56,835 nucleotides of DNA from an uncultured Syntrophales bacterium. GTDB taxonomy: Bacteria > Desulfobacterota > Syntrophia > Syntrophales > JADFWA01. This document shows positions 4,857 through 52,690 of the stretch, one piece after another. Made by a program: the position numbers and the translations under genes. The stretch covers positions 1 through 56,835 of the forward strand of contig CAZYTP010000005.1 of the NCBI GenBank assembly GCA_964650385.1. The letters run 5' to 3'. The number at the start of each line of letters is the position of its first letter. Position 1 is the first letter of the stretch. The notes beneath the pieces were generated by a model that searched no databases, had not been told where the DNA came from, and saw only the letters and a list, made by a program, of their open reading frames with translations.

Positions 4857-4892
4857 GACAAGTTCGTAAAAGTGATTTTTTACAAGTGCATC
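4857..4892. mobile_element. Cargo-less 36-bp MITE (two terminal inverted repeats only)
   Basis: GACAAGTTCGTAAAAGT-GATTTTTTACAAGTGCATC flanked by AATATT/AATATT; ends resemble those of the 131-133-bp elements. Confidence 0.65.
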
Positions 4893-29286: not shown

Positions 29287-29347
29287 TCTTTTCACCGGGA
29301 GCGCATCCCGCAAGGGGGCGCAATATAAAACAAACATATTCCTTGCC

Positions 29348-34471: not shown

Positions 34472-34520
34472 GATGAATACCTGTTTAAAGTTTCGAGTTT
34501 AAAGTTCAAAGTTTAAAGTT
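34472..34520 (+). repeat. AAAGTTT-type heptamer array
   Basis: 34472-34513 is 41/42 identical to the reverse complement of 40352-40393; an inverted arm lies at 34673-34697. Confidence 0.8.
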
Positions 34521-34652
34521 GATGGCTTCGTAAAAAGTCAGCTTTTGTCACCCTGAATTTATTTCAGGGTCTCTAACTTGCTGAAATAATTAGATGCTGA
34601 AACAAGTTCAGCATGACAAATAACACATTTTGAGACTTTTTACGAGACTGTC
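34521..34652. mobile_element. 132-bp MITE carrying a type-B GTCA palindrome doublet
   Basis: GATGGCTTCGTAAAAAGTC...GACTTTTTACGAGACTGTC; flanks AAAGTT/ACAGTT; close copies at 51802 and 52483. Confidence 0.85.
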
Positions 34653-34696
34653 ACAGTTAATTTCATTCCCCCAAACTTGAAACTCCGAACTTTGAA

Positions 34697-35251
34697 CTAT
34701 TTTTTGACAATCATGCACTTCAAGCCTTTAATCTTCTTCTCTAAGATTACTTTAACTTTTTCCGCATCTTTATAATTTACAAATCCCTTCAACCGAACAC
34801 GAAACCACATTCCTTTTAATTTTAACTTAATTTCATCAACCGCGGAGTCATAACCCATATCAGACAATCTTTTATTGAGCGTCTCCGCCTTCTTTCTATC
34901 TTTAAAAGAGGCTACCTGTATTATGTGTTTATTTTCAAGAAGAGCTTTTCTGCCTCCACCTTTCCCCAATTCATCACTTTTACGGGCCAGGGTATCATAG
35001 AAGGTAAGTTTAAAATCTTTTTTCTCTTCCTTTGCTATCTCCTCAGCAGCTAACGGTTTCCTGATAATCCTTTGCTTTGTTATGCGGGGAATACCTTTTA
35101 CAATCTTCTCCGGGTAGCTTTCAATATTTTTCCCAACTATGACTCCAAAAATAAAAGCAAATAAGAGAGAGAGAGAAGTCCCGAAGACAAACAAACCCAG
35201 GCCCAGCTTACCCAGTCTGAATTCGAAATCTTTTACCTTTCGGGAAGACAT
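34697..35251 (-). CDS. SPOR-domain membrane protein (FtsN-like)
   Basis: N-terminal TM helix, LTFYDTL, IQVASFK...WFRVRL; follows argS. Confidence 0.85.
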   Translation of the reverse strand: MSSRKVKDFEFRLGKLGLGLFVFGTSLSLLFAFIFGVIVGKNIESYPEKIVKGIPRITKQRIIRKPLAAEEIAKEEKKDFKLTFYDTLARKSDELGKGGGRKALLENKHIIQVASFKDRKKAETLNKRLSDMGYDSAVDEIKLKLKGMWFRVRLKGFVNYKDAEKVKVILEKKIKGLKCMIVKK

Positions 35252-35307
35252 TAATGCACTTAGCTCCTCCGTTTATTTTTAAATAGTTAAATAGCGTTGT
35301 TAAAATA

Positions 35308-36972
35308 CTACATTTTTTCCGGGGCCGAGACACCCAAGAGCATTAAAGCGTTTCTCAAAACTATCCGAACAGATTTAACAAGAAAAAGTCTCGCCATGCT
35401 TAAATCCAAGTCATCGGAAATCACCCTGTTTTTGTTATAATAACTATGAAAAACAGAAGCAAGGTCGTTCAGATAAAATGTAAGACGATGGGGCTCAAGC
35501 CCCTTTGCACTTCCTTCAACTACTTCCGGAAATCTGACAATCTCTTTAATAAGAGTAATTTCCTCCGGAAGGGTTAAACACCGCCAATCCACATCACCGA
35601 AGCCGGGAATTTTATAACCTTGTTCATGTGCTAACCTCATGATACTGGATATCCTGGCATGTGCATATTGAACATAATAAACAGGATTTTCATTCGACTG
35701 TTTTTTGGCAAGCTCCAGATCAAAATCAAGATGGCTGTCTGATCGTCTCATGAGAAAGTTATATCTTGCCGCATCTCTTCCCACCTCATCGACAACTTCC
35801 CTCAAGGTCACGAATTCTCCGCCTCGTGTAGACATAGCTACAGGTTTTCCGCTCCTTAAAAGATTTACCAGTTGCACCAGGATAATCTTAAGGGCTTCTT
35901 TTTCATTACCAAGAGACTGGATGCCGGCATACAGTCTGGGAATATAACCATGGTGATCAGCACCCCAGACATCTATAATCATATCGAAGCCTCTTAAATA
36001 CTTGTCGCGGTGATAGGCAATATCTGCAGCAAAATAGGTCGGTTCACCGTTCTCCCTGACCACTACCCTGTCCTTTTCATCACCAAAATCGGTTGTTTTG
36101 AACCAGAGAGCTCCTCCCTCCTCATAGACAAACTCCTTTTCTTGAAGTTCTGAGAGCAGTTTTGCAACTCCATCATCTTTATAAAGTTCTTTCTCACTGA
36201 AATAACTATCAAAAACTACACCAAAGGCATTCAAATCCTCCTTTATTCCAGTCAAAATAGAATCGACGGCATAATCTTTAAAAACAGGAATGGCTTCTTT
36301 CTCTTCTTTTTCAAGATACTTGTCACCATACTCTTCAAATATTTCTACGGCCAGCTCTTTAATATAATCTCCCTGGTAACACTCAGGTGGAAACTCAGTC
36401 TCTTTTCCCAGCAGCTCCAGATAACGGAGAAAAACAGATTTTCCCAGAACTTCCATCTGGCTGCCTGCATCATTAATATAATACTCTCTGACAAGGGAAA
36501 ATCCCGAAGATTTCAGGATATTGGCAACGACATCACCAATAACGGCACCCCTTGCATGTCCTATATGAAGAGGCCCAGTGGGGTTGGCACTGACAAATTC
36601 TATCTGCACCTTCTTGCCTTTTCCGAAATCGGATTCTCCATAACGATCATCCTGTTCATCCACGTCTTTCAAAAGGGGAACCCACGCATCTTTTTCAATA
36701 AAAAAATTGATAAAGCCAGGGCCGGCAATTTCTATCTTAGCCAGCAGGTTATCGTTATCGTCGATATTTTCAATGATCTGTTCTGCTATTTTACGCGGGT
36801 TCACCCCCTGGCTTGAGGCAAGGACCATGGATGTAGTACACGAATAGTCGCCGTGGGATTCCTCCCTTGGAGTTTCCACTTCTATAAAGGGGAGACCTCC
36901 TATCTCAAACATCCGTTTATCGGAACAGGTTCTAATAGAATTTTCCAGTAATTCAATTAACTTCTTCTTCAT
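35308..36972 (-). CDS. argS: Arginine-tRNA ligase
   Basis: [34 protein letters not shown]. Confidence 0.98.
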
Positions 36973-37029
36973 CTAAAAGCCCTTCCCTTTGCTGAATGCT
37001 GATAGCTGACAGCTTGCCTTTCTTATACT

Positions 37030-37053
37030 AAAAAAGTTGGCCAAAAGGCCAAC
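37030..37053 (-). terminator. Intrinsic terminator-like hairpin ~60 nt upstream of argS
   Basis: Minus strand GTTGGCC-TTTT-GGCCAAC-TTTTTT. Confidence 0.6.
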
Positions 37054-37189
37054 CCGTTTCTCTGAAACTAAATATAACCACCCGACCTCAGGGAGGCCGG
37101 ATTTAAGTGCAGGTTCCGATTTACGATTTTATCAAACCAATGGCGAAAGTTTTCCCATTCACAGAAAGGGAAAACCACGAACGGTTACT

Positions 37190-37357
37190 TTAATTTTCTT
37201 TCTTTTCTACCTCATCAATATCTTTGTCCTTTATGGAAAGATCCCTGGTAAAATCGGGACAGTGAACATTACCTACAGAATCCGTTGTAACACTAAATCT
37301 CTTCCGGCAGTTTCCCCTCCATGCACATATTGAACAGTATCTCTTCTCCGTTTCCAT
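37190..37357 (-). CDS. Small Cys-rich protein, 55 aa (absent from the ORF track)
   Basis: METEKRYCSICAWRGNCRKRFSVTTDSVGNVHCPDFTRDLSIKDKDIDEVEKKEN; GAGG RBS; TTGACT-17-TAGCGT upstream. Confidence 0.75.
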   Translation of the reverse strand: METEKRYCSICAWRGNCRKRFSVTTDSVGNVHCPDFTRDLSIKDKDIDEVEKKEN

Positions 37358-37465
37358 AATACCAACCTCAGCTTTTCAATAACTTTGAGTGCCACGCTAT
37401 AATTTTACGGCCATTAAGTCAAGAAATTTTGGTGACTATAAAGAAAAGATTGAAACCGTATAAAC

Positions 37466-38701
37466 TCAGTTTCTATCATCTTTCCAGGATGTCAGTGTCA
37501 GATCATCTGATGTGTATTTGTCTTTCAGTGCCGCGTCATAATAGAGCGTTCCTGAATTTTTTATATCTACACTAGCAGCCCATATGGCGCCATAAACACT
37601 TGAACTGTTTTTCATATCAACATCCGCAAATGGGGCATAAACCAGCCCTTTGAATGCACTGCTGTGCTTGAAATCAATCTTGGCGGTAGAATTGGAAAAA
37701 ATGGCAAAATCCGTAGGGTTTCCTGTAACATTGATAGTCGAACCATTCTTGGCGTCAAGCCCGCCTTCCAAAAATATGTTAACTGATCCCGCTGATGCGT
37801 CGATAGTAAGATTCGCACCGCTTTTTAGTATAACGCTTGTGAAGTAATAATCTCCTGCAGTCAAGGTAATCGACCCGTTAGTGTTTATTGTGGTGCCGAC
37901 TCCGGCGGAAGCATTGTCGTTGCTGGCAACGTAGATAGAAGGATCATACACGCCGCCGGAATTTATACCCAGAGGGTCGGGATCGATCCTTCCCGCATCG
38001 ACAGGAGTCGTTCCATAGAAGGTTGTACCGCCATGGATATTATTTACTGTATCAGAGCCATCCGATTGTTCGCCCAATACTCCGCTCCCATCAATTGATG
38101 CCCCATTATGGGTCACCAGCCAGTCATTAGATCCGACATCAGCCTCATGCGTGGTTTGGAATGATGAATCGGAAGGATCGTTTTTTGTGGGATCGGAGCT
38201 GCTGCTGTCATAGCTCAGAGTGGTTCCGCCATTTTTCGCGTCTACTTTATGATCGCCAAATGCCGCGTAATTGATCGCAGAGTCTCTTTCAAATGTGACT
38301 TCTATGACAGCTTGTGCGCTATTCGGGCCATTTCCGGTACTGGTTAAGGTATAAGTACTTGAACCTGAATTCTTCGATATGGTTGAAATAGTAAAAGAAA
38401 AACCGGTTGGCGTCGTGTATGTAAGTGTAGCAGGACTCCCTGCGGAAGGAAGCGTGAATGTCTGCGGACTGGCCTTAAGCCCTGCCTCTATCATTGCAAG
38501 GGCGTACTGAACACCGGCATCGGCATCATAAAAGGCCTGTCTGCTCGTTTTATAATTACTGCTGATTTTAAGATCCGTCGATGTCTGCATGACGGCCGTC
38601 GTTCCAAGGGCTGCCAAAACGGCAAGCATCAAAACAGATATAACGAGAACTATTCCCTTCTCGTTGTTCAATATTGTGCCAATCTGTTTTTTTATTTTCA
38701 T
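37466..38701 (-). CDS. PilX-like minor pilin with large C-terminal beta-rich domain
   Basis: EKG|IVLVISVLML (no Glu5), QAFYDADAG; Gly/Ser/Thr/Asn-rich C-terminus with FKGLVYAP. Confidence 0.8.
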   Translation of the reverse strand: MKIKKQIGTILNNEKGIVLVISVLMLAVLAALGTTAVMQTSTDLKISSNYKTSRQAFYDADAGVQYALAMIEAGLKASPQTFTLPSAGSPATLTYTTPTGFSFTISTISKNSGSSTYTLTSTGNGPNSAQAVIEVTFERDSAINYAAFGDHKVDAKNGGTTLSYDSSSSDPTKNDPSDSSFQTTHEADVGSNDWLVTHNGASIDGSGVLGEQSDGSDTVNNIHGGTTFYGTTPVDAGRIDPDPLGINSGGVYDPSIYVASNDNASAGVGTTINTNGSITLTAGDYYFTSVILKSGANLTIDASAGSVNIFLEGGLDAKNGSTINVTGNPTDFAIFSNSTAKIDFKHSSAFKGLVYAPFADVDMKNSSSVYGAIWAASVDIKNSGTLYYDAALKDKYTSDDLTLTSWKDDRN

Positions 38702-38715
38702 AATATATCATCCCT

Positions 38716-39300
38716 TTATAAACCAAGATTTCTTGGGGTTATAACAGACGTCAGGGAATATGTTCTGTACCCACCATTGGATGTATAAACCGGATCAGGG
38801 TTGGCGGTCCGCATTGTAATGGTAATCCTTACCTGACGTATATTCGCCGTAGTAGTGGTCGCGGTACCATCACCATCCAAATATTCGAAAGTAAAAGCCT
38901 GAACATTTTCTATTAAAGGCTGAGCACCCCCCCCTGTGTCCCTGTCGATCTGGAGATTTGCAGTGTCGTGTGAATATATGATATTTTCATTTGCGTCATC
39001 TGGAGTCCCATCGCCGTCCAGATCGGCACGTATCTGAAGCTGTGAGGTGCTGTAAGTCACACCATCGAAAGCTGCACCTGCTGGATTGTAACCCGCCATC
39101 CTTATCTCTCTGGTCATCATGTCCATAGCAGCCCTTGCGTTTTGCTGCATCTCGGCAATCTGTTCCTGAACCTTATAGGTCTTATTTTGTATAATAAAGA
39201 CACTATATACGGCACCAAGAACAATAAGGCCCACTGCCATAGCAATCAACAGTTCGATGAGTGTAAAACCGCGATTGTTATTTTCAGGAAAACAACTCAC
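38716..39300 (-). CDS. PilW-like minor pilin
   Basis: RG|FTLIELLIAM, MQQNARAAMDMMTREIRMAGY, C-terminal PRN. Confidence 0.88.
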   Translation of the reverse strand: MSCFPENNNRGFTLIELLIAMAVGLIVLGAVYSVFIIQNKTYKVQEQIAEMQQNARAAMDMMTREIRMAGYNPAGAAFDGVTYSTSQLQIRADLDGDGTPDDANENIIYSHDTANLQIDRDTGGGAQPLIENVQAFTFEYLDGDGTATTTTANIRQVRITITMRTANPDPVYTSNGGYRTYSLTSVITPRNLGL

Positions 39301-39328
39301 TTCTCTCCCCTTCTTGCATAAGGGTTAG

Positions 39329-39691
39329 CTACTGTGCCACTATTGTTCGCAGTGTAACATTGTGTGTATTGCCGCCCCGGTTCCAACTTACCGTAACGAC
39401 AATAGTTGTCGTGCCGGCAATTGGCGAATCAGAGGTAACCGCCCATGTTCTTGCATAAATGGAATCTGTATCACCACCAGAAGCAATGCTGCCATAAGCT
39501 GTATTTTTCAGTTCTTCCATCTTATCCTGGGCCAACGTTGTTGCACTCGTAACCTCTTTGCCGAAAGCATTCCCCTTTATAACGCTTACCGTCACGCCTG
39601 CTACACCAAAAAGAGCTATAACGAGGATCAATATGGCAATCATAATTTCTATCAGTGTAAAGCCATTATTATTACTGCAAATTTTATCCAT
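39329..39691 (-). CDS. PilV-like minor pilin
   Basis: NG|FTLIEIMIAI, ATTLAQDKMEEL, VTVSW. Confidence 0.85.
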   Translation of the reverse strand: MDKICSNNNGFTLIEIMIAILILVIALFGVAGVTVSVIKGNAFGKEVTSATTLAQDKMEELKNTAYGSIASGGDTDSIYARTWAVTSDSPIAGTTTIVVTVSWNRGGNTHNVTLRTIVAQ

Positions 39692-39765
39692 TGGTATAAC
39701 CAAAAAAGTTCCTGAAGATTGTTGTTTGAACTGGCGCCAACATCTACACACAAAAAACGCAGATG

Positions 39766-40218
39766 TTATGGCGAATCATCTATCTTTACACGCCCGGTAA
39801 TAGCAACTTTAACATATTTCGACCCACTGGAATTTGTTAAGGTAACAGTAGTACCGTATGCTGTTCCGCTCGGATAGAAAATAGGATTAGTAGATGCACT
39901 CAGAGTTACATCGTAATACTCGGCCTGAATATCTTTTGTCTGGGATGACTCCCCGGCATCTTCAGCGTTATTATTATTATCGTCATCCAATATTTTATAC
40001 TGATGACTATCTAAAAATAACATCCTAAAGCGGTTATTCTGGCTGGCTGCCTTCATTCTTGCTTCCATTAAATCCGACATGACCTGCCTTGCAGCTCCGT
40101 TTAGACGGTTCTTCACCATCCAGCTTCGATATGCCGGCAAGGCAAGGGTGGCCATAATCGCTATAAGGGCGACCACTATCATCAATTCGATAAGCGTAAA
40201 GCCTTTTTGTGATCTCAC
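39766..40218 (-). CDS. FimT/FimU (GspH-like) minor pilin
   Basis: KG|FTLIELMIVV, DLMEARMKA, TGRVK. Confidence 0.88.
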   Translation of the reverse strand: MRSQKGFTLIELMIVVALIAIMATLALPAYRSWMVKNRLNGAARQVMSDLMEARMKAASQNNRFRMLFLDSHQYKILDDDNNNNAEDAGESSQTKDIQAEYYDVTLSASTNPIFYPSGTAYGTTVTLTNSSGSKYVKVAITGRVKIDDSP

Positions 40219-40236
40219 TTTTTCCCACTCACGTTT

Positions 40237-40351
40237 GATGGACTCGTAAAAAGTCCAAATCTTGTCACTCCCGCGCAGGCGGGAGTCTATAACACCTTAC
40301 AATAACTGGATTCCCGCCTACGCGGGAATGACAGAGAGGAACGAAACCGTC
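40237..40351. mobile_element. 115-bp MITE carrying a type-A GTCA palindrome doublet, right end partly deleted
   Basis: GATGGACTCGTAAAAAGTC, GTCACTCCCGCGCAGGCGGGAGTCTA...TGGATTCCCGCCTACGCGGGAATGAC, then ACGAAACCGTC. Confidence 0.75.
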
Positions 40352-40417
40352 AACTTTGAACTTTAAACTCGAAACTTTAAACAGGCATTCATCTATATAC
40401 CGGTGCCTCTCAGACAA

Positions 40418-41206
40418 TCATCTCAAAAACAAAATCCCCTTCAGATACTTCCCCAAAAACATATAAGCCACAGCAGCAATAGACAGGAACGGCCCAAAGG
40501 GAACCGCATATTTCAAATCCTTCCCGTGCATAATCATCATGGAAATACCGATAATTGATCCAAGCAGGGAACTTACAAGAAGTATAAACAGAAGGGATTT
40601 CCAGCCCAAAAAGGCCCCGAGCATGGCCATAAGCTTTATATCACCTCCGCCAATCCCCTCTTTTTTCGTTACAAACTGATATACAATGGCAATCAGATAA
40701 AAACCTCCTCCACCAATTAAAATTCCCAAAATGGAGTCAAGAAAAGAGATATCCATAAAAAAGAACGTTAACAGGAAAAAGAGTGGAATCCCCGGCAGTG
40801 TAATTACATCCGGAATAATCTGATGTTCCAGGTCTATAAATGTTATAATGATAAGGGTACAGACGAATAAAAATGCAAAGAAATACTGAAAAGACAAACC
40901 ATACTTCCAGAACAGAAGCAACGACAACAGGGCAGTTGTCAGCTCAACTACCGGATAGCGATGTGAAATTCTTTTATGACAATCCCTGCACTCCCCCCTC
41001 AAAACAAGATAGCTTATTATCGGTATATTATCATAAAACCTGATGGGATGCGAACAGTTTGGACAGAAGGATTTAGGAAATATAATAGATTTTCCTTCAG
41101 AAATTCGATATATACATACATTCAAAAAACTCCCAACACAGGCACCAAAAACTATAAAAAAGATACTTACAAGATGTCCTCTCAAAAATACTACCTTCCT
41201 GATCAC
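40418..41206 (-). CDS. pilD: Prepilin peptidase
   Basis: GSFLNVCIYR, two CxxC, FIDLEHQIIPD, GGGDIKL, PFGPFL. Confidence 0.95.
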   Translation of the reverse strand: MIRKVVFLRGHLVSIFFIVFGACVGSFLNVCIYRISEGKSIIFPKSFCPNCSHPIRFYDNIPIISYLVLRGECRDCHKRISHRYPVVELTTALLSLLLFWKYGLSFQYFFAFLFVCTLIIITFIDLEHQIIPDVITLPGIPLFFLLTFFFMDISFLDSILGILIGGGGFYLIAIVYQFVTKKEGIGGGDIKLMAMLGAFLGWKSLLFILLVSSLLGSIIGISMMIMHGKDLKYAVPFGPFLSIAAVAYMFLGKYLKGILFLR

Positions 41207-41482
41207 TCATTTTCGGATTTTTCGGCAGTCGATCCCGAGTTTGTCAATTTTCTTGTGGAGAGTATTCCTGTTTATCCCGAGAAAATCTGCAGTAGTGATC
41301 TTCACGTTACTGGAACGTTTCAAGGCAATTTTAATCATGCCCCTTTCTACCATAGACAATATATCCTCGTACAATCTGCTCTTCTCTGTGCCGGTCGAAC
41401 AGAGCAGGGTGACGATATATTCGAGTTCCTCCCCAATAATATCTTCTAATGGTAATAAAGACGCCTGATTTTTTTTATCCAT
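41207..41482 (-). CDS. Fis-like helix-turn-helix protein
   Basis: LYEDILSMVERGMIKIAL...ADFLGINRNTLHKKI. Confidence 0.85.
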   Translation of the reverse strand: MDKKNQASLLPLEDIIGEELEYIVTLLCSTGTEKSRLYEDILSMVERGMIKIALKRSSNVKITTADFLGINRNTLHKKIDKLGIDCRKIRK

Positions 41483-41595
41483 GATTATTCTCTATATTGT
41501 TTCAATTAAAATTGGACAGAATTTAAAGCAAAATGAGATTGATTTATATTACAAAAGGTCAGGAACGAATACAATGAAGTGTTTCATGCTTTTGA

Positions 41596-41611
41596 TGTGA
41601 AATATTTCACA
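41596..41611. promoter_or_regulatory. Perfect CRP-type operator upstream of the fis-pilD-minor pilin genes
   Basis: TGTGA-AATATT-TCACA; candidate minus-strand promoter TTGTAT-17-TAATAT at 41574-41546. Confidence 0.75.
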
Positions 41612-41651
41612 CCAAACCAAATACCATATTTGATGATCCGGTAAAGTTTCA

Positions 41652-42335
41652 TTACAGTTTGGCACGTCTTTCGAGACGCGCCAGGTCAAGTATACGGAGG
41701 GTGCCCTTTTCAGTACTGACCAGCCCCTTTTCACGCAACACCCTCAGTTCCTTGTTAACACTTTCTCTGGTAGCACCTATCATGCTGGCAAGATCTTTCT
41801 GGCTGAGACGCAAGTCAATCTGTATAATATCCCCATCCCGTTTACCATGCGTTTTGGCTAATTCAACGAGCTTTTTCGCAAATCTGGCGGAGATATTGAG
41901 AAAATAAGCATCTTCTAAAGAATCATCAGTCTTGCGCAAACGCATTGAAAGATTGGAAAGGATCGCCTGCATAGCTTCTTCATTATTCCCCAGGAATGTG
42001 ATAAAATCATTTCTATTCAGAGCAAGTAATTCAGATGGCTCGAGTGCTACAGCATCAGCCGAACGCGGCATTCCGTCCAAAAGAGCCATTTCCCCGAAGA
42101 AATCCCCGGCGGAGAAGACCGCCAGGACAGCCTCATCCCCCATCTTGGAAGGGAGTACAATCTTGATGCTGCCCTTTCTGACGATATAGAGTACATTCCC
42201 TTCATCACCCTTACGAAAAAGCACTTCCCCCTTTTTCAAAGATCGCCGTCTCAGCACGCTGCTCAAACGTTTACGATAATCCTGGCCAATAGATTTAAAC
42301 AAGGTGATTTCTTTTAAAATTTTCTCAGGGGCCAT
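41652..42335 (-). CDS. Crp/Fnr-family regulator (cAMP-binding, CRP/GlxR-like)
   Basis: FGEMALLDGMPRSA nucleotide pocket; HTH SQKDLASMIGATRESVNK. Confidence 0.92.
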   Translation of the reverse strand: MAPEKILKEITLFKSIGQDYRKRLSSVLRRRSLKKGEVLFRKGDEGNVLYIVRKGSIKIVLPSKMGDEAVLAVFSAGDFFGEMALLDGMPRSADAVALEPSELLALNRNDFITFLGNNEEAMQAILSNLSMRLRKTDDSLEDAYFLNISARFAKKLVELAKTHGKRDGDIIQIDLRLSQKDLASMIGATRESVNKELRVLREKGLVSTEKGTLRILDLARLERRAKL

Positions 42336-42351
42336 GATTTCCCCTCTCTTT

Positions 42352-42807
42352 TTATCCGTCTTTTCTGCTCCAGTCGTATGGAATATCATTGTTGTGTGGG
42401 TCTACCCTGAATTCATCCGGTTCTTCATAATTGTAAACTTCTGTCGGAGTATTAACCGCAATGGCTTCCTCGATAGAAACACACTTAAAGCCGTGATATA
42501 CATATGGCGGGATATGAACAAGTAAAGGATTGTGCTCTCCGACAAAAAACTCATTGACCTTACCACAAGTGCTGGAATTCTCACGGCTATCGTAGAGGAC
42601 AATCTTCATCATACCCTTGACAACCGTCATGTTGTCGCATTGTTTTTTATGATAATGCCACCCCTTCACTACACCAGGATTAGCAGTTGTCATATACACC
42701 TGACCAAATCCAGCGAACATCTCGTCGTCCCGGCGGAGTATTTCCATCAACCTCCCTCGTTCATCCGGTATCACCTTCAATTTCTTAATCATCACACCTT
42801 CAATCAT
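42352..42807 (-). CDS. dTDP-4-dehydrorhamnose 3,5-epimerase family (cupin)
   Basis: DERGRLME, KGWHYH, IPPYVYHGFK. Confidence 0.88.
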   Translation of the reverse strand: MIEGVMIKKLKVIPDERGRLMEILRRDDEMFAGFGQVYMTTANPGVVKGWHYHKKQCDNMTVVKGMMKIVLYDSRENSSTCGKVNEFFVGEHNPLLVHIPPYVYHGFKCVSIEEAIAVNTPTEVYNYEEPDEFRVDPHNNDIPYDWSRKDG

Positions 42808-43532: not shown

Positions 43533-43669
43533 TACGTTCTCCTTTCATTGCAAGCAAGCTCCGTTTTTATATCATACTTTCTCATCCCTTAACAACAATT
43601 GTCTGATATTTGCCATTGATTCAAAAGTTAGTCTCTGATATTTAAAAAGGCAAAGAAAGGGATTGAATA

Positions 43670-44752: not shown

Positions 44753-45256
44753 ATGCCCTGGTATGCAGTACATACAAGAAGTCGTCATGAAGACAAAGTA
44801 CATTTAGGTCTTCTTCAAAAATCCTTCAATGTTTTTTTACCCAAGATCGAGGTATGGAGTAAAAGAAAGGATCGAAAAAAGAAGATCATGATACCGATGT
44901 TTCCGGGATATCTCTTTGCAGAATTACATGCCATGGACAATCAGACGAAAGTAGAAGTTCTCAAGACCTTCGGCGTGGTCAGAATGCTGGGGAAACCGAA
45001 CAGCCATGAACCGATACCCGTCCCGGACGAAAAGATAGGTTCCATCCAAAGGCTCGTTGAATCAAAGGTAGAGATTCAGCACTTCCAGTATCCAAAGGCA
45101 GGTGAACCCGCCCTGATAATAGACGGCCCATTCAAAGGTATTGAAGGAATTGTAGTTAAGACTGACTATACAAAGGAACTCTTCGTCGTATCTATTGACC
45201 TTCTTCAACGGGCGGTAGCCATCCAGCTAAAAGGATTCCAGATTACAAAAGTTTAA
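44753..45256 (+). CDS. NusG paralogue, UpxY/RfaH/LoaP-type antiterminator
   Basis: WYAVHTRSRHEDKV, PMFPGYLF, KOW DGPFKGIEG; starts directly after the ribD stop. Confidence 0.9.
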   Translation: MPWYAVHTRSRHEDKVHLGLLQKSFNVFLPKIEVWSKRKDRKKKIMIPMFPGYLFAELHAMDNQTKVEVLKTFGVVRMLGKPNSHEPIPVPDEKIGSIQRLVESKVEIQHFQYPKAGEPALIIDGPFKGIEGIVVKTDYTKELFVVSIDLLQRAVAIQLKGFQITKV

Positions 45257-45260
45257 ATTT

Positions 45261-45393
45261 AATGCATCCGTAAAAAGTCTGTCATTCCCGTGAAAACGGG
45301 AGTCCATAGAGGGCTAAGTGCTTGAAAAGACTGGATTCCCGTTTTCACGGGAATGACAAAATTGTGCATATTTCGACTTTTTACGAGACCATC
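45261..45393. mobile_element. 133-bp MITE carrying a type-A GTCA palindrome doublet
   Basis: CCGTAAAAAGTC, GTCATTCCCGTGAAAACGGGAGTCCA...TGGATTCCCGTTTTCACGGGAATGAC, GACTTTTTACGAGACCATC; flanks AAATTT/AAATTT. Confidence 0.85.
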
Positions 45394-45419
45394 AAATTTG
45401 TTATTCGTATTCCGATTGA

Positions 45420-45473
45420 CACGGACAAACAATACCGGATCAATGTCCGGCACATGGTTTGTCCATGCCACCC
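45420..45473 (-). repeat. 54-bp nested palindrome, copy 1
   Basis: 47/54 identical to 54433-54486 in opposite orientation. Confidence 0.75.
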
Positions 45474-45515
45474 ACCACAAAATTTCTAATCCCCCTTTGT
45501 ACTTCTTGGGATCAT

Positions 45516-45584
45516 AGTTAAAGCAATTTTATCCTTAATTTTAGATCACTTTAGTCACTTCAAACTTTAGCTCACTTCTACATT
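45516..45584. repeat. CACTTTAG array element, one-armed copy
   Basis: TTTAGATCACTTTAGTCACTTCAAACTTTAGCTCACTTC preceded by a degenerate core. Confidence 0.65.
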
Positions 45585-45633
45585 AGTTGTCCCTTGTCCT
45601 GTAAATCATCTCAAATTGTTTGCTTGGAATGGC

Positions 45634-46638
45634 TTATCTGTTGCCGCTGAAGGCTTTCATAGCTTCTTCCATCAGAAGGTTTCCATACCCTTTATACTTC
45701 GGGGAATAGTGAAATATTGCTATCTTCTTCGCCCCTGCCATTCGTGCCAAACTGCCTGCCTGCATGGCGGTAAGATGATATTTACGCGCTGCCATACCCG
45801 CATCCTCCTGCAGAAAACATGCCTCAATAAAAATAAAATCGGACATACGGGCCAGCTCAACTATCCTGTGTATGTTCTCCTCGCTGTAGACAGCATCCGC
45901 TATATACGATATCCTCTGGCCAGGTGTGATTTTTACGATGGTCTCCTTCAATTCACCGAGAGGCACTATCTTTTCCAGAACCTCCCTGCCGTTATCCCTT
46001 CGCCATACCCTGATCGGGGCATCATCAGGGTCACCCTTCAGGATACTGTCCTTCAAATCGACAAGCCACGCCCCCACGGGAAGTCCCATCTCCTCCAACT
46101 TGTTTCTCTTGATATTTATACGCTTCTTCTCCTTAAGGGAATACGCAAGACAAGGTATCTTATGATCAAGAAAAACTCCCGTAACGGTAAAGAAACTCTC
46201 TTTTACAACTGTACCATCAAAGCTCTCACTGTCACTGACCGTTTCGGGTTTAAAGGCATTCTGACAGTGATAGCGTCTCGTTATTTTACGACCGGGATGT
46301 ATTTCCGTCACCAGAAGCACAAAATCGTTCGTGTAATTTTCAACAAGATTCCAGGTATAGCCGGCTATCTTGCTTTCCACATTCTCAATAAACCCCGGTG
46401 GGCCGAAAAGTGAAAGATGCTTGTCACGCCCCAATAAAACCCTCAATATATGATCAAATCCTATAAAGTGATCCACGTGTGTGTGGGAAACAAAAATATG
46501 ATTTATCTTGAGGAGCTTCCGGGGGGGGAGGGAGTGAATGTCGCCAAGGTCGAAAAGGATTGCCCTGTTTCTGTATCTGAACTCTACATATACACCGGGG
46601 TCACCGAAGGGATCATTGATCAGGAAGGCGTTAAACAT
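45634..46638 (-). CDS. Ribonuclease Z-like MBL-fold hydrolase
   Basis: SHTHVDHFIG, LDHKIPCLAY, exosite-like insertion, YHLTA, FHYSPKY. Confidence 0.82.
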   Translation of the reverse strand: MFNAFLINDPFGDPGVYVEFRYRNRAILFDLGDIHSLPPRKLLKINHIFVSHTHVDHFIGFDHILRVLLGRDKHLSLFGPPGFIENVESKIAGYTWNLVENYTNDFVLLVTEIHPGRKITRRYHCQNAFKPETVSDSESFDGTVVKESFFTVTGVFLDHKIPCLAYSLKEKKRINIKRNKLEEMGLPVGAWLVDLKDSILKGDPDDAPIRVWRRDNGREVLEKIVPLGELKETIVKITPGQRISYIADAVYSEENIHRIVELARMSDFIFIEACFLQEDAGMAARKYHLTAMQAGSLARMAGAKKIAIFHYSPKYKGYGNLLMEEAMKAFSGNR

Positions 46639-46653
46639 GATATGTTTTTAACG

Positions 46654-46697
46654 AAAAAAAGAGGGGAAGTCCAGTATTATCGCCTCCCCTCTTTTTT
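46654..46697. terminator. Bidirectional terminator-like hairpin
   Basis: A7-GAGGGGA...TCCCCTC-T6. Confidence 0.55.
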
Positions 46698-46718
46698 CAC
46701 ATGAGGCCGTAAATCTAA

Positions 46719-46976
46719 TTAACCGCCAATTAGCTTCAACAGTGGATTGGCGTAAAACAATATCAGGGGAATATCCAGTGCATAGATACAGAGAGACTCT
46801 ATCATGACCAGACCTACCATTAAGATGATCAATATCTTGTCCTGGGCTTCAGGATTTCTACCAACAGCATTGGTAGCACCCTGGATTCCGGATCCCATCC
46901 CTATGCCGGTACCGACAGCGCCAAAACCAGCAGCAAGGATAGTGCAACCCAAAACAATTGCTTTTGTATAATCCAC
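46719..46976 (-). pseudogene. atpE: Orphan F0 ATP synthase c-subunit homologue, probably decayed
   Basis: GTGIGMG glycine zipper, GRNPEA loop, IESL.IY; no RBS, Asp/Pro in helix 2, no other atp genes nearby. Confidence 0.65.
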
Positions 46977-47130
46977 AGCAGCCGCCGGACGGGCATTCTT
47001 TTTAAGTGCCCCCTTATCAGCAAAGCACCTGCCCGTCTTTTAATTGTTATACGCATGAAAAAAATTGTCAGGAAATATTTGTTGTGGTACATAGGGGTAA
47101 ATTTAAACTCAGGATTTCTATCAACATACG

Positions 47131-47592
47131 ATGCTTTCAAAAACAGAAATAAAAATAGCACAACACATTCAAGGAGATATTCCCCTTACCAAAAGACCAT
47201 TTGCGCGTATTGGAGAAAAGACAGGAATACGTGAAGAGGATGTCGTTGACGGGATAAAAGGGTTAATGAAACGGGGGATTATCCGAAAATTCGGCGCCAC
47301 TGTCCGCCACCACAGGGCAGGTTTCACACACAACATCATGGTCATCTGGGCGGTTCCTGAACAGCGATGCGAAGAGGTGGGCAGGATTTTTGCCTCTTTT
47401 AGAGAGATCTCCCACTGCTATGAAAGAACTCCCCCCTTTGAAGAAAAGTACAACATCTATACGATGATACATCTCAGGGGAAACGACCAGGAAGGATTTA
47501 TCGAAAAACTCATCTCAGCAACAGGCATAACGGATTTCAAGGTCTTACTAACTGAAGAAGAATTCAAAAAAAGCAGTATGGAGTATTTTTGA
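47131..47592 (+). CDS. Siroheme decarboxylase subunit, AhbB/NirH-like (Lrp/AsnC fold)
   Basis: QGDIPL..RPF, IRKFGA.VRH..AG, ISHCYER, YNIYTMIH, EFKKSSM; coupled to hemL. Confidence 0.88.
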   Translation: MLSKTEIKIAQHIQGDIPLTKRPFARIGEKTGIREEDVVDGIKGLMKRGIIRKFGATVRHHRAGFTHNIMVIWAVPEQRCEEVGRIFASFREISHCYERTPPFEEKYNIYTMIHLRGNDQEGFIEKLISATGITDFKVLLTEEEFKKSSMEYF

Positions 47593-48887
47593 TGAAAGAT
47601 TCCACATCTCTTTTCGATAAGGCAAAAACCCTCATACCGGGCGGCGTGAACAGCCCGGTTCGGGCCTTCAGGGCCGTTGACTCAACCCCAATATTTATCA
47701 GCCACGCTTCCGGTTCCAGGATTTTCGACGTAGAAGGAAGGGAATACATAGACTATGTTTCATCATGGGGGCCGATGATACTTGGTCACAACCATCCTGA
47801 AGTCACCCGCGCAATAAAAGAAGCTGCCGACAAGGGGACAAGCTACGGTGCCCCAACAAATGCTGAAGTCGAAATGGCTGAACTGATCTCGAATGCCTTC
47901 CCATCGATCGAAATGGTCAGAATGGTCAACTCCGGGACAGAGGCAACGATGAGCACCATAAGGCTCGCCCGCGGCTTCACCAACAGGGAAAAGATCATAA
48001 AATTCGAGGGGTGTTATCACGGCCATGTAGATTCTCTTCTGGTCAAGGCCGGCTCCGGTGTTGCCACACTGGGTATTCCGGGAAGTCCCGGCATACCGAA
48101 AAAGCTGGCGGAGCTAACCATAACGCTCCCCTACAACAACATTGAAACTGTTAAATCCGCTGTTAGCATGCATGGAGAAGATATTGCCTGCGTAATACTC
48201 GAACCCGTTGCCGGAAACATGGGTGTTGTCCCGTCACACAGAGGATTTCTCGAAGGGCTGAGAGAGATAACCGAAAGCCACGGCATTCTCCTCATATTTG
48301 ATGAGGTAATTACGGGATTCAGACTAACCTATGGAGGCTTCCAGAATATCGCCGGTATCGAACCCGATCTTACCTGTCTCGGAAAGATAATCGGGGGCGG
48401 TCTTCCTGTCGGCGCCTTCGGGGGGAGAAAAGACGTTATGGAAACCCTCGCCCCGACAGGGCCCGTCTATCAGGCGGGAACCCTTTCCGGAAATCCCCTG
48501 GCTATGGCAGCCGGCATCACAACACTCAAGATCCTTAAGGAAAAAGTTGATTATGACGAAATCGACCGGAAAACGGACTTTCTATGCCGTGAAATGAAAA
48601 AACTCTTTAATCAAAATGAGATCCCCGTCAGCATAAACCGCGTCGGCTCAATGTTTACGATATTTTTTACGGATGACGAGGTCTTCGACTTTGAAACTGC
48701 CGGCAAAAGCGATACTGCACTTTTTGCACGATATTTCAGAGAAATGCTTGCAAACATGATAAACATTGCCCCCTCCCAGTTTGAGGCGTCCTTTCTCTCA
48801 TTCGCCCACACAGATGAAGACATCGAAACAACTCTTGGTGCCTGCGCCGCTGCACTGGAAAAAGTGAGTCTTGCCCATGAAAAATGA
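47592..48887 (+). CDS. hemL: Glutamate-1-semialdehyde 2,1-aminomutase
   Basis: PGGVNSPVRA, NSGTEA, YHGH, FDEVITGFR, GKIIGGGLP, YQAGTLSGNP. Confidence 0.97.
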   Translation: MKDSTSLFDKAKTLIPGGVNSPVRAFRAVDSTPIFISHASGSRIFDVEGREYIDYVSSWGPMILGHNHPEVTRAIKEAADKGTSYGAPTNAEVEMAELISNAFPSIEMVRMVNSGTEATMSTIRLARGFTNREKIIKFEGCYHGHVDSLLVKAGSGVATLGIPGSPGIPKKLAELTITLPYNNIETVKSAVSMHGEDIACVILEPVAGNMGVVPSHRGFLEGLREITESHGILLIFDEVITGFRLTYGGFQNIAGIEPDLTCLGKIIGGGLPVGAFGGRKDVMETLAPTGPVYQAGTLSGNPLAMAAGITTLKILKEKVDYDEIDRKTDFLCREMKKLFNQNEIPVSINRVGSMFTIFFTDDEVFDFETAGKSDTALFARYFREMLANMINIAPSQFEASFLSFAHTDEDIETTLGACAAALEKVSLAHEK

Positions 48888-50196
48888 ACTATCGTTCGAG
48901 TCTTTTTTGAACAAGACAGAAAAGATTGCAGTGGTAGGTCTCGGCTATGTTGGTCTGCCGCTTGCCGTCCATCTGTCCAGGCATTTTTCTGTTACAGGAT
49001 ATGACGTCAATTCCGACCGCATAGCTGAACTTAAGGCTGGCCATGATAGTACCAGAGAGGTAACCGATTCAGATTTACAATCATCAACTGTGGATTTCAC
49101 GTCCAGCCCCGAAGCGCTCTCTTCCTGCAGACTCATCATCGTGGCTGTTCCAACACCCATCGATGAAGCTAAATCACCGGATCTTACATATATCAGAAGC
49201 ACTTCAACCACTGTGGGCAAATATCTCTCACAAGGCTCCTGTGTGATCTTTGAATCGACGGTCTATCCGGGAGTAACGGAAGATATCTGTGTTCCTATCA
49301 TGGAAAAGGAATCCGGCTTAAAATTCGGTAAAGATTTCTCCGTCGGATACTCACCCGAAAGGATTAATCCGGGTGACAAGGTCCATACGTTAGAGACGAC
49401 TATCAAAATTGTCTCCGCATCCGATATAAAAACCCTCGACTTGCTCACACAGATTTACGGCAGGGTCGTTAATGCCGGGATTCATCGGGTTTCTTCTATC
49501 AAAGTAGCTGAGGCGGCCAAGGTCATTGAAAATACGCAAAGAGACATCAATATTGCCCTCATAAATGAGCTTTCCATCATCTTCAACAAGATGGGAATCG
49601 ACACTCTTGAAGTCCTGGAAGCGGCAGGCACCAAGTGGAATTTTCTGCCATTTCGGCCAGGCCTTGTAGGCGGTCACTGTATCGGGGTGGATCCCTACTA
49701 TTTAACCTTCAAGGCGGAGTCATTAGGCTACCATCCGCAGGTAATTCTGGCCGGACGCCGTATCAACGACGGGATGGGGAAATACATAGCCGGGCAAACC
49801 ATCAAGATGCTCATCGCCGCAGATAAGCATGTCAGAAATGCAAAGGTGGCAGTACTCGGGCTGACCTTCAAGGAGAATGTCCCCGATTTACGCAATACAA
49901 AGGTGGCAGACATCATCAATGAATTGAAAGATTACGGGAGCAGCGTTATTATCCATGATCCCCACGCCAGTGCTGAAGAAGCCTATCACCAATACGGCCT
50001 GAAACTACAGCCGCTCAATCAAATTAGAGGGGTTGATGCGGTGATTCTGGCGGTTGCACACCGGGAGTATCAGGAACTCGGCCTCCGAAAGATCGCTGCG
50101 TTATGCTCCGACGGAGATTCACCTGTTGTGGATGTTAAGGGTATGTTCAGCCACGAAGAAGCAAAGAAACTCAATATAAATTACTGGAGATTGTGA
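48877..50196 (+). CDS. Nucleotide-sugar dehydrogenase (TviB/WbpO-like)
   Basis: GLGYVGLP, ESTVYPG, SPERINPG, GGHCIGVDPYYL, FKENVPDLRN. Confidence 0.92.
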   Translation: MKNELSFESFLNKTEKIAVVGLGYVGLPLAVHLSRHFSVTGYDVNSDRIAELKAGHDSTREVTDSDLQSSTVDFTSSPEALSSCRLIIVAVPTPIDEAKSPDLTYIRSTSTTVGKYLSQGSCVIFESTVYPGVTEDICVPIMEKESGLKFGKDFSVGYSPERINPGDKVHTLETTIKIVSASDIKTLDLLTQIYGRVVNAGIHRVSSIKVAEAAKVIENTQRDINIALINELSIIFNKMGIDTLEVLEAAGTKWNFLPFRPGLVGGHCIGVDPYYLTFKAESLGYHPQVILAGRRINDGMGKYIAGQTIKMLIAADKHVRNAKVAVLGLTFKENVPDLRNTKVADIINELKDYGSSVIIHDPHASAEEAYHQYGLKLQPLNQIRGVDAVILAVAHREYQELGLRKIAALCSDGDSPVVDVKGMFSHEEAKKLNINYWRL

Positions 50197-50233
50197 AAAA
50201 TGTGCCCTTTCTGTCATTCCCGCGTTTCCTTCT

Positions 50234-50642
50234 GTCATTCCCGCGAAGGCGGGAATCCAGACACCATCCCCACGCAAGCGGGGAAACATGAAGTGAAATA
50301 ATGTAGCGTGACGTGCGTTAATGAAACAATATTACATTTATATTCTTGCAAGCAGAAAAAACGGGACGTTGTATGTCGGTGTGACGAGTGATTTACTCAA
50401 AAGGATTTATGCGCACAAACAAAATCTCATAGATGGATTCACAAAAAAATATAATGTCCATACTCTTGTGTATTGTGAGGTATATAACGACATACGAAAG
50501 CGATTCTAAGAGAAAAGCAGATAAAGAAATGGAATAGGAGATGGAAGCTAAGGCTTATTGAAGAAATGAATTCTGAATGGAGGGATTTATATGACGAAAT
50601 AGTTTAAACATATTTCTGGATTCCCGCCTTCGCGGGAATGAC
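50234..50642. mobile_element. GIY-YIG cassette bounded by perfect 26-nt inverted GTCA palindromes
   Basis: GTCATTCCCGCGAAGGCGGGAATCCA (50234-50259) and its exact reverse complement (50617-50642). Confidence 0.8.
50321..50607 (+). pseudogene. Stand-alone GIY-YIG nuclease with a 1-nt frameshift near 50497
   Basis: YYIYILASRKNGTLYVGVT...R...H...GFTKKY in the first frame; AILREKQIKKWNRRWKLRLIEEMNSEWRDLYDEIV continues in another frame to TAA 50607. Confidence 0.88.
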
Positions 50643-50677
50643 CATTTAGAATATTTATGGAAACTTGTAAGGATTCT

Positions 50678-51703
50678 ATGAGAAAAATCTTAGTCACAGG
50701 TGCAGCCGGCTTTATCGGGTTCCATTTAGCTAAAAGGCTATTAAATAGTGGCAATACCGTCGTCGGCATAGACAACCTGAACAATTACTATGATGTCAAC
50801 CTGAAAAAAGCACGTCTTGCCATTCTCGAAAACTACAAGACCTTTAATTTCACCCAAATGGATATCGCCAACCGGGAAGACATGGAAAGACTTTTCCATA
50901 CAGATTCACCAGACTATATTGTCCACTTAGCCGCCCAAGTAGGAGTACGTTATTCTCTTGAGAATCCCCACGCATATATCAACAGCAATCTCGTCGGTTT
51001 CACAAATATCCTTGAAGGCTGCAGGCACAATAAAGTTAAACATCTCGTTTTTGCCTCGTCAAGTTCCGTCTACGGTGCAAACACCAGGGTGCCCTTCTCG
51101 ATTCATCATAATGTTGATCACCCAATCAGCCTCTATGCCGCAACGAAAAAGGCAAATGAACTGATGGCACATGTTTACGCGCATCTTTACAATATCCCCT
51201 GCACGGGACTCCGATTCTTTACCGTATACGGCCCTTGGGGTAGACCCGACATGGCCTATTTCCTCTTTACGGATGCCATCCTGCGGGGAAAGCCGATCGA
51301 CGTATTCAACCATGGTAAGATGAAAAGGGACTTTACATACATAGACGATATTATAGAAGGTGTTGTCAGAATAATTGACAATATCCCGCAGGCGGATCCC
51401 AGCTGGAGCAGAGATGATCCTGACCCCGGTACAAGCTTTGCCCCTTATAAAATCTATAACATAGGCAACAACAACCCCATACAATTGATGAAATTTATCA
51501 ACCTGCTGGAAGAGTGCCTCGGTGAAACGGCAAAAAAAAACTTTCTTCCCCTGCAACCCGGAGATGTGCCGGCAACTTATGCCGACGTGGACGATTTAAT
51601 GAAAGACGTGGGCTTTAAACCGAAGACCCCGCTAAGAGAAGGCATCAGAAAATTTGTGGAGTGGTATAAGAAATATTATTTTACTCCCCAAAACAGACAT
51701 TGA
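50678..51703 (+). CDS. NAD-dependent epimerase (UDP-glucuronate 4-epimerase-like)
   Basis: [38 protein letters not shown]. Confidence 0.93.
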
Positions 51704-51716
51704 CCCTTCGAACACA

Positions 51717-51781
51717 GTAGGATAGGCGTCCCGCCTGTCCATAATGGTGAATCGCTTAGACAGCCGAGACGGCTGTCCTAC
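51717..51781. repeat. GTAG-type REP doublet (REPIN-like)
   Basis: GTAGGATAGGCGTCCCGCCTGTC...GACAGCCGAGACGGCTGTCCTAC. Confidence 0.7.
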
Positions 51782-51801
51782 GGGATGGGGAGGACAGTCT
51801 T

Positions 51802-51932
51802 GACAGTCTCGTAAAAAGTCTTTTTTTGTCACCCTGAATTTATTTCAGGGTCTCTAACTTGCTGAAATAATAGATGCTGAAACAAGTTCAGCATGACAAA
51901 TGACACATTTTGAGACTTTTTACGAGTGCATC
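51802..51932. mobile_element. 131-bp MITE carrying a type-B GTCA palindrome doublet
   Basis: Close copy of 34521-34652; flanks AGTCTT/AATCTT. Confidence 0.85.
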
Positions 51933-51974
51933 AATCTTTATTTTCAATGTCTATTTTTGGGATCATCTTCGAGC

Positions 51975-52003
51975 TTGACTTGAAGTCGAAAAGTCATCAT
52001 AAT
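51975..52003 (+). promoter_or_regulatory. Putative ssrA promoter
   Basis: TTGACT-17 nt-CATAAT, 27 nt before the mature 5' end. Confidence 0.65.
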
Positions 52004-52030
52004 ATATGTAAATTTGTTCTTGAAAAATAT

Positions 52031-52386
52031 GGGGGCGTCACGGTTTCGACGGGGATAACTGAAGCTGTAGTGGCATACCGAGGTTCCTATCGGCCTCGTT
52101 AAACAGGTAGGAAAAACGTAAACGCAGATAATTACGATTACGCTTTAGCCGCTTAAGACGGCTAACGTTCTCCTGATTTCTCCTATCGGATCAGATGAGG
52201 GCGTCATTTAGGTAGGATAACCGATCTCATCTTCCTGGGGTGAGAAAGGCGAAAACTAAACAGGATAGTACCTGAGAAATCCTGCCTCTGGGAGATTTCA
52301 GGTGCGAATTTAAAGCAGAGGCTATGTATGTAGAAGCTGCAGTGGAATATTTTCGGACGCGGGTTCGACTCCCGCCGCCTCCACCA
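52031..52386 (+). ncRNA. ssrA: Transfer-messenger RNA
   Basis: 5' GGGGGCG..GGTTTCGAC; tag ORF ADNYDYALAA-stop at 52124-52156; 3' GGGTTCGACTCCCGCCGCCTCCACCA. Confidence 0.97.
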
Positions 52387-52398
52387 GACTTTCGCTCC

Positions 52399-52426
52399 AA
52401 AAATAGGGACAGCTGTCCCTATTTTT
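52399..52426. terminator. Perfect 28-bp palindrome after ssrA (terminator-like, also a repeat-family member)
   Basis: AAAAATAGGGACAG|CTGTCCCTATTTTT. Confidence 0.65.
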
Positions 52427-52482
52427 TATTTTTGTTGTCCCTGTTTTCTATACAGATGCTGAAGCTGGCTGAGGTCATATTT

Positions 52483-52614
52483 GAGGCACTCGTAAAAAGT
52501 CAGCTTTTGTCACCCTGAATTTATTTCAGGGTCTCTAACTTATTGAACTGTTTAGATGCTGAAACAAGTTCAGCATGACAAATGTTGCAGTTTATGACTT
52601 TTTACGAGACTGTC
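52483..52614. mobile_element. 132-bp MITE carrying a type-B GTCA palindrome doublet
   Basis: GAGGCACTCGTAAAAAGTC...GACTTTTTACGAGACTGTC; flanks ATATTT/ATATTT. Confidence 0.85.
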
Positions 52615-52690
52615 ATATTTTACTTTGACTTTTTCGCTTGTTCGTGTAATGTTATTTTATCATCGCATGAATACATGAAAGGAAAGGCAG

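Follow-up and report, generated by a model that had tools for sequence, protein, structure and literature searches.

A short repeated element with inverted ends occurs six times in a 56,835-nt contig of an uncultured Syntrophales bacterium (Desulfobacterota, Syntrophia, lineage JADFWA01; GenBank assembly GCA_964650385.1, contig CAZYTP010000005.1), hereafter called the window. The window is contig C5 of a genome, G000, that comprises 2.77 Mb in 173 contigs, with 44% G+C and a completeness of 97%. The six copies share an outer shell, i.e., their ends, and are miniature transposable elements with inverted repeats (MITEs). Five of them contain an inverted doublet of GTCA-tagged hairpins of the repetitive extragenic palindromic (REP) kind. 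The shell has the 19-bp ends and the 6-bp footprint of a DDE insertion sequence (IS) of approximately 1.9 kb that resembles IS1182. In our judgment, it is quite probable that this IS moves the shell in trans, and that the interiors are foreign REP doublets carried as passengers. The copies are listed below; none of them has a strand assigned.

4857..4892: collapsed shell of 36 bp, two ends without an interior; AATATT repeats on either side, 1-nt gap in the left core
34521..34652: MITE of 132 bp with a type B doublet; hairpins 34547-34572 and 34592-34617, IHF-like site 34574-34586
40237..40351: truncated MITE of 115 bp with a type A doublet; hairpins 40263-40290 and 40306-40333, core of the right end deleted
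45261..45393: MITE of 133 bp with a type A doublet; hairpins 45280-45307 and 45331-45358, IHF-like site 45315-45327
51802..51932: MITE of 131 bp with a type B doublet; hairpins 51828-51853 and 51872-51897, located inside an older MITE (51686..51961)
52483..52614: MITE of 132 bp with a type B doublet; hairpins 52509-52534 and 52554-52579, 96 bp downstream of the gene for transfer-messenger RNA (tmRNA)

Copies in the Window and Their Orthologous Sites

Shared ends had been predicted at these six sites and were recovered at all of them, but the copy at 40237-40351 is without its right core, and core changes were seen at 34521 and 45261 (one to two in the left core) and at 4857. The agreement of the 6-bp flanks is as claimed, with three perfect sites (6/6 at 4857, 45261, and 52483), two sites at 5/6 (34521 and 51802) and one at 4/6 (40237). 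The five MITE copies show strong single-strand folding (z -5.8 to -10.5), which is expected because of their repeats.

Two genomes of the same genus (G001 and G002) and two further relatives (G003 and G004) were compared, and an empty ortholog is present for four of the six sites (4857, 34521, 45261, and 51802). The site at 34521 is empty in G002, with one AAAGTT, and occupied in G003, while 45261 and 51802 each correspond to a single 6-mer in G002. At 40237, G002 has the same truncated copy, there with an additional IS605-type miniature inside, and for 52483 a clean orthologous site was not found in the genomes compared. The site at 4857 shows a single AATATT in G003 and G004 and is filled in G002 by a 154-bp copy with the same tips; the interior of the congeneric copy is a third hairpin type. 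The original prediction had regarded 4857 as an empty shell into which a doublet might home. Since the congener copy is filled and has the same tips, 4857 is probably a deletion remnant of a filled copy, a direction that we infer from the congener.

The Shell

The 19-bp consensus of the shell end is GA-Y-R-N-N-Y-T-CGYAAAAAGTC, and the ends in the window are beyond chance. G000 holds 62 exact matches to the 13-nt core, compared with 0 in a shuffled genome, and 99 to the strict 19-nt pattern, compared with 0 for the reversed pattern. About 70 paired copies are present in G000. A first search gave 66, which are non-coding and span 75-273 bp with a mode of 132-133 bp; a profile scan added seven pairs, of which two overlap copies elsewhere in the set, as well as 51 ends without a partner, many of which lie at the edge of a contig. 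The length of 131-133 bp proposed for intact copies holds in the window, but genome-wide only 27/66 paired copies belong to this class.

Exact flank duplications of 6 bp were found in 28/66 copies and of 7 bp in 2/66; permuted flanks yield 2.0 duplications of 6 bp on average and 8 at most. In a sample of 96 distinct copies from at least 127 public loci, 55/96 have a 6-bp and 14/96 a 7-bp duplication among the matches listed, with a permuted mean of 1.6. The target of the shell is TY-AANNTT-RA, and the duplication, of 6 and sometimes 7 bp, lies at AANNTT. From 59 copies on 40 stretches of G002, 23 could be placed in G000 by both flanks; nine of these sites are empty with exactly one 6-mer, four are filled in both genomes, and ten are rearranged or ambiguous. 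Given the clean empty sites, the 6-bp target duplication that had been predicted is real.

The strict end pattern was detected in 20/31 relatives and in 134/401 genomes sampled from the phylum, with controls near zero; the highest load is 585 ends in one phylum genome. Public records with the same end are labeled mostly as Desulfobacterales, Desulfobulbaceae, Syntrophaceae, Smithellaceae, and Deltaproteobacteria, besides one Nitrospirae genome. Altogether, the shell is short and non-coding, has terminal inverted repeats (TIRs), a target duplication and single-copy empty sites, and shares its ends with an autonomous IS. By all of these testable features it is, and works like, a MITE.

The Likely Parent Insertion Sequence

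The original prediction took the shell to be of the DDE type, and an autonomous IS with the same ends and with DDE domains was indeed found. In 151 genomes of the order, shell ends are lacking at the 30 loci that match DUF772 best; the IS came from 20 further loci (weaker DUF772 hits and shell-rich genomes), two of which are intact. These two copies measure 1924 bp (ATTGTT duplication, 591-aa open reading frame (ORF)) and 1900 bp (594-aa ORF). Their proteins match Pfam DUF772, DDE_Tnp_1, and DDE_Tnp_1_6, contain a Y-x2-R-x3-E motif and have a D/D/E triad that is putatively assigned by alignment; the predicted structure is of low quality (predicted local distance difference test score 56.5). 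Their DUF772 and DDE_Tnp_1_6 domains, single long ORF and GA-starting ends are those of the IS1182 family (NF033551), which is also the top NCBIfam match. The parent differs, however, in scoring below the family cut-off (162.5 and 149.4 bits versus 270), in a length of about 590 aa and in sharing 20% identity with a true IS1182 transposase from G002. A further candidate is the ISNCY/ISDol1 group, which has repeats of 6-7 bp; against NF033593, a model that may not cover ISDol1, the parent transposases score 59-69 bits with a cut-off of 325. As far as tested, the parent appears to belong to an IS1182-like clade without a name.

Close homologs of the parent transposase are encoded in 16/401 genomes, and the strict end pattern is present in 15/16 of them as well, the IS's own ends being counted. 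At 25 homolog loci that were examined, a shell end lies beside the ORF in 20/21 with at least 48% identity, while the four below 48% have no shell end of their own. A perfect 6-bp duplication surrounds 5/13 of the parent-type elements with both ends. In the genus, a decayed copy remains in G001 and two fragments with right ends in G002, and in plasmid records only distant relatives were found, the best at 38.7%. Two apparent end pairs at 1-2 kb in public contigs were rejected as IS, as they are neighboring MITEs. At another locus (L247, G010:C20), an IS5-family element inside a shell copy mimics an autonomous element of 1.6 kb. One autonomous copy of the parent (L266, G373:C122) is 2101 bp long with a perfect 6-bp duplication, and its right end has absorbed a whole MITE-type hairpin module.

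The Interiors: Doublets of REP/SRM Hairpins

Hairpins of the type found in the shells also bound a gene in the window, as had been predicted for type A; the gene itself is frameshifted.

50234..50642, plus strand: hairpin-ssn-hairpin cassette; type A hairpins 50234-50261 and 50615-50642, outside any shell
50321..50607, plus strand: Ssn-like single-domain GIY-YIG gene (PF01541, E 3.5e-11), 1-nt frameshift near 50497

The cassette is absent at the same site in G001, and the broken ssn gene has an intact ortholog of ~95 aa in G002. Four of the six GIY-YIG (PF01541) matches in G000 are single-domain Ssn-like genes of <150 aa between inverted hairpins, which are of type A at two genes, type B at one and type D at one; none of these genes matches a specific NCBIfam family. 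In the window, 5/6 full type A hairpins match the published SRM pattern, compared with 0/6 type B hairpins. Type B flanks an Ssn-like gene on contig C75 of G000 and is SRM-like by this context, outside the printed pattern.

Most hairpins in G000 lie inside the main shell, i.e., within 300 bp on the inner side of a shell end: 38/48 of type A, 89/101 of type B, 10/26 of type C, and 3/7 of type D. Of the "free" C and D doublets, many are located inside five other end types, with 17 paired copies. Two of these end types are IS5-like (5-bp duplication in 3/7) and two IS1182-like, and for the fifth no partner was found; three or four of the five match full elements in fetched loci, which score above the IS5 or IS1182 family cut-offs. 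Insertion into the loops of other hairpins, with 3-bp duplications, is seen for one IS1182 shell type and for its parent (G000 C2:19681, C8:19181, and C83:5644; L229 and L230).

The main shell itself holds 56 interior clusters among 221 copies, including interiors without a GTCA hairpin (the H, E, and G types, and AT-rich ones of ~100 bp without a hairpin pair). The commonest foreign interior (150-154 bp; L012, L016, L021, L078, and others) contains an inner unit of 124-125 bp with shell-like ends of its own. Only 19/219 interiors match the IS body, of which 18, all of one family, correspond to a module that a single IS copy has captured, the remaining match being 22 nt long, and no hairpins of the SRM pattern occur inside the parent elements examined. 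Derivation of the interiors by deletion from the parent IS was rejected on this near-total lack of homology and of hairpins; the MITEs are thus not simple deletion derivatives. Two outcomes named beforehand as contrary to a layered element, i.e., empty sites without a single 6-bp target and palindromes that co-segregate as subterminal sequence of one IS, did not occur.

These findings support the view that the doublets are cargo of the CGTC-REP/SRM kind, belonging to the Ssn (GIY-YIG) system and foreign to the shell. Hitch-hiking of the doublets is supported because they occur in five other shells and because the main shell carries many unrelated interiors; the hairpins have likely spread by riding in the shells of several unrelated transposons. 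The layered mobility that was predicted thus stands for foreign, hitch-hiking cargo, but homing into the shell is not supported. The suggestion that a shell might enclose a GIY-YIG gene was not borne out at any of 34 loci (0/34). At 3/34 loci one shell end is fused to an ssn-flanking hairpin, in one case by a cross-type junction at the shared tag.

Exchange of Interiors and Tandem Insertion

Cargo exchange, for which separate clustering of shells and interiors had been proposed as a check, is supported. In 109 elements, the tip type does not depend on the type of cargo (permutation p 0.34); 29 type B copies show 24 different tip pairs, and 53 type B copies show 49 haplotypes. Moreover, the interiors differ at the four orthologous sites that are filled in both G000 and G002. 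At one of these, only the left tip is the same, the interior and the right tip being changed; at site 15, the change is confined to the right half, with the left half and both tips conserved; at site 4, tips as well as cargo are all different. The fourth is 4857, with 36 bp in G000 and 154 bp in G002.

Neighboring copies suggest how such differences arise. Among pairs of a right end and a left end within 150 bp of each other, 12/18 are exactly 6-7 bp apart, as expected if the element's own end recreates the target. Deletion between the repeated cores of such tandems would keep the left tip and change interior and right tip. The differences at orthologous sites are probably due to tandem self-insertion and recombination. 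Shell and cargo also move as one unit, as copies that are identical from tip to tip are present at different sites of the mapping set (numbers 5 and 32, and 6 and 15). In tests for recombination concentrated at tags or cores, none of the pairwise associations remains significant once 21 tests are corrected for (smallest p 0.005). Several IS605-type miniatures have inserted behind a TGAC that belongs to a shell end or a hairpin tag.

Length and Central Site

An IHF-like site, i.e., a 13-mer scored at the loose threshold of 7/9 positions of the IHF consensus, lies within 12 bp of the center in 28/44 interior clusters, whereas shuffling gives 13.1 on average and 22 at most. In the left end of the parent IS, such sites are found near position 107 in 15/16 and near position 29 in 10/16, counts that have no shuffle control. 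Five HU/IHF-family proteins are encoded in G000. Counted from the tip, A/T tracts are most frequent at 12-14, 20-23, 31-33, and 41 bp, a recurrence of ~10 bp, and one GTCA tag lies at a distance of 35-36 bp in 63/65 copies of 129-136 bp. Convergence of the shells on about 132 bp is shown by the IS5/IS1182-type copies with doublets as well, 9/14 of which are 130-132 bp long. Phasing of lengths at 10.5 bp (p 1.6e-3 on 44 clusters, the best of 14 periods) is suggestive as a general rule. The central site and the partial, weak phasing suggest a DNA-looping constraint. Comparable cases are the size periodicity of ~10 bp in the internal eliminated sequences (IESs) of Paramecium, described in PMC3464196, and the length periodicity that this source cites as established by DNA looping for the short transposons IS1 and IS50.

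Proposed Mechanism and Alternative Explanations

In the account that we favor, the transposase of the IS would act in trans on the MITEs and bring together two ends that are only ~130 bp apart, and the central IHF-like site, the phased A/T tracts and a favored length would help the DNA to loop. Doublets already carrying such a spacer would be good cores and therefore be captured repeatedly. Each insertion would recreate the target (TC-AANNTT-GA) at its own ends, so that copies could land in tandem, and recombination between repeated cores or hairpins would swap tips and interiors at a fixed site. Nuclease action of Ssn would be needless. Several points weigh against this account. No matching transposase was found in G000 with PF01609, PF13751, or the parent protein, in 173 contigs at 97% completeness. 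No linker common to type A and type B cargo exceeds background, so there is no clean junction at which the same shell holds a swapped cassette, and the fixed offset of the GTCA tag could equally mean common descent of many interiors. As to length, phasing gives p 0.16 on distinct lengths, the held-out value falls from u 2.37 (n=22) to u 0.79 (n=15) without the copies of 131-133 bp, and the common type B variants, at 149 and 171 bp, do not fit the phase.

REP doublets might be a general-purpose MITE core, to which at least five DDE end types were joined independently and converged on an IHF-bent loop of ~132 bp, with Ssn driving the swapping of cores between shells; this would constitute a two-enzyme mobile system and a route for the multiplication of CGTC REPs, and we consider it unlikely. 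Another division of labor, in which the DDE transposase moves the shell while Ssn actively puts doublets in place or exchanges them through nicks in single-stranded DNA immediately 5′ of each GTCA tag, a position within the two linkers of a MITE, is also unlikely. Cleavage by SsnA a few nucleotides upstream of its hairpin, as described in PMC11893778, would fit it, as would the presence in G000 of Ssn-like genes with type A, B, and D flanks, the many shell-cargo combinations and the three fusions of single shell ends to ssn-flanking hairpins, including the cross-type junction. Such fusions are, however, explained by deletion between short shared sequences, and Ssn is not known to have a joining activity. 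Moreover, ssn genes are not enclosed at any of the 34 loci, mosaic breakpoints appear scattered along the whole element rather than gathered at the tags, and the H, E, G, and ~100-bp AT-rich interiors do without a GTCA hairpin.

The fixed tag offset of 35-36 bp and the linker pattern of A-tracts and T-tracts, which are shared across types and genomes, fit one or a few ancient captures, after which the interiors diversified in place from a common MITE and differences at the same site reflect independent insertions at hot spots. The low-complexity, reused target and orthologous site 4, where tips and cargo both differ, fit this as well. Several captures are nevertheless needed for 56 unrelated clusters among 221 copies and for unrelated shells; furthermore, tips are shuffled across cargo types and orthologous site 15 differs in its right half only, and we consider this explanation unlikely, slightly more so than placement by Ssn. 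By far the least probable is that the element is not of the DDE type but is integrated as a circular form by a tyrosine recombinase through a 6-bp overlap between inverted arms. A 6-bp core with a palindromic target and, in one sample, lengths that plus 6 come near whole helical turns are in its favor. Full-length elements with the same ends, however, encode a DDE protein, and the duplications are 6 or 7 bp and of variable sequence; this minicircle model was dropped because the DDE parent was found.

Relation to Known Systems

By its sequence, the element is a real, layered one, every part of which is of a known kind. Bacterial MITEs that share only their ends with an IS, as outlined in PMC10969869 and PMC3184786, are likewise non-coding, intergenic and shorter than 300 bp, with TIRs, a target duplication and IS ends. 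Here, by contrast, the interior is a complete doublet of another repeat system, many unrelated interiors occur per shell, and one doublet family occurs in several shells. Chunjie, a MITE found in Geobacter uraniireducens, according to its description in these reviews, is also deltaproteobacterial and of variable size with a stable fold, but has 21-bp ends, 9-bp repeats and a length of 178-235 bp, compared to 19 bp, 6-7 bp and a mode of 132-133 bp here. Repeats of 8-9 bp as in Chunjie flank 0/66 copies in G000 and 0/96 public copies among the matches listed.

For the interiors, the closest relatives are the Ssn nucleases with their NTS/SRM hairpins (Chenal et al., 2025; PMC11893778), which are likewise single-domain GIY-YIG proteins, of 95-113 aa, with inverted GTCA-tagged hairpins. 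The main text of that paper raises hairpin mobility as a hypothesis only and does not contain the words "MITE" and "transposable," whereas most hairpins here are inside transposon shells rather than free-standing. CGTC-tagged REPs (Di Nocera et al., 2013; PMC3733652) similarly form head-to-head dimers of tagged hairpins. As presented there, the dimers can lie inside longer "target palindromes," noted without a link to IS, and the REPs were concluded to have no dedicated transposase, their mobility being left open; here, specific DDE elements and target duplications can be assigned to the outer palindromes. REPINs with their REP-associated tyrosine transposase (RAYT), as described in PMC3116915, resemble the present element in that inverted REP doublets are what moves and that the genome encodes a cognate single-strand enzyme at another place. 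In REPINs, however, the REPs themselves terminate the element, whereas in the shells they are located internally, between ends that, like the footprint, are of the DDE kind. By visual inspection, neither of the two Y1 transposase loci of G000 has shell ends or type A or B hairpins.

The claim of an undescribed system may hold for the pairing but not for the parts, which are those of known kinds (MITE, and CGTC-REP/SRM with Ssn). Neither the MITE/IS pair nor SRM doublets as MITE cargo were found described in the literature searched, which excludes ISfinder, most subscription papers and the supplements of PMC11602168 (a large MITE catalog), PMC3733652, and PMC11893778, where these sequences may be listed. 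The location of most such hairpins of G000 inside DDE shells with fresh target duplications provides a concrete, testable route, i.e., riding the transposases of others, which may explain how the long-orphan CGTC REP family moves. Besides, a matched transposase and mini-element are now available for a MITE family present in a third of the sampled phylum genomes, and unrelated shells that converge on about 132 bp offer a natural "helical-twist" experiment comparable to that of the Paramecium IESs.

Other Features of the Window

The copy at 51802 interrupts the following element.

51686..51961, no strand: older, different MITE with CC-starting ends (CCCCAAAA and AGACATTGA), ~137-139 bp when uninterrupted, with a GTAG-tagged hairpin pair

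This MITE is present once in G000 and in multiple copies in G002, where uninterrupted ones occur; in its G002 ortholog, another MITE is inserted in place of the 51802-type copy. The tmRNA gene lies at 52031-52386 (tag ADNYDYALAA), and G001 too has a shell copy, a different one, directly after its tmRNA. A tRNA-Val gene is located at 24228-24302 and an HU/IHF-family gene at 16655-16930; an Rfam scan of the window gave nothing beyond the tmRNA and the tRNA.

Tandem 7-mer repeats of the AAAGTTT type are found at 34483-34520, 40352-40393, and 28895-28921. Two shell copies lie within them, probably because these repeats are rich in the AANNTT target. A second AT-rich family of short-period repeats (CACTTTAG-type) is intergenic, at 20956-21035, 21846-21899, 29992-30088, and 45525-45570. 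A palindromic repeat family of 54 bp has six matches in G000, with window copies at 45420-45473 and 54433-54486. Finally, a miniature ending in TCAC, which we take to be of the IS605 type from its end features, is located at 29296-29383, and 44 such ends are present in G000.

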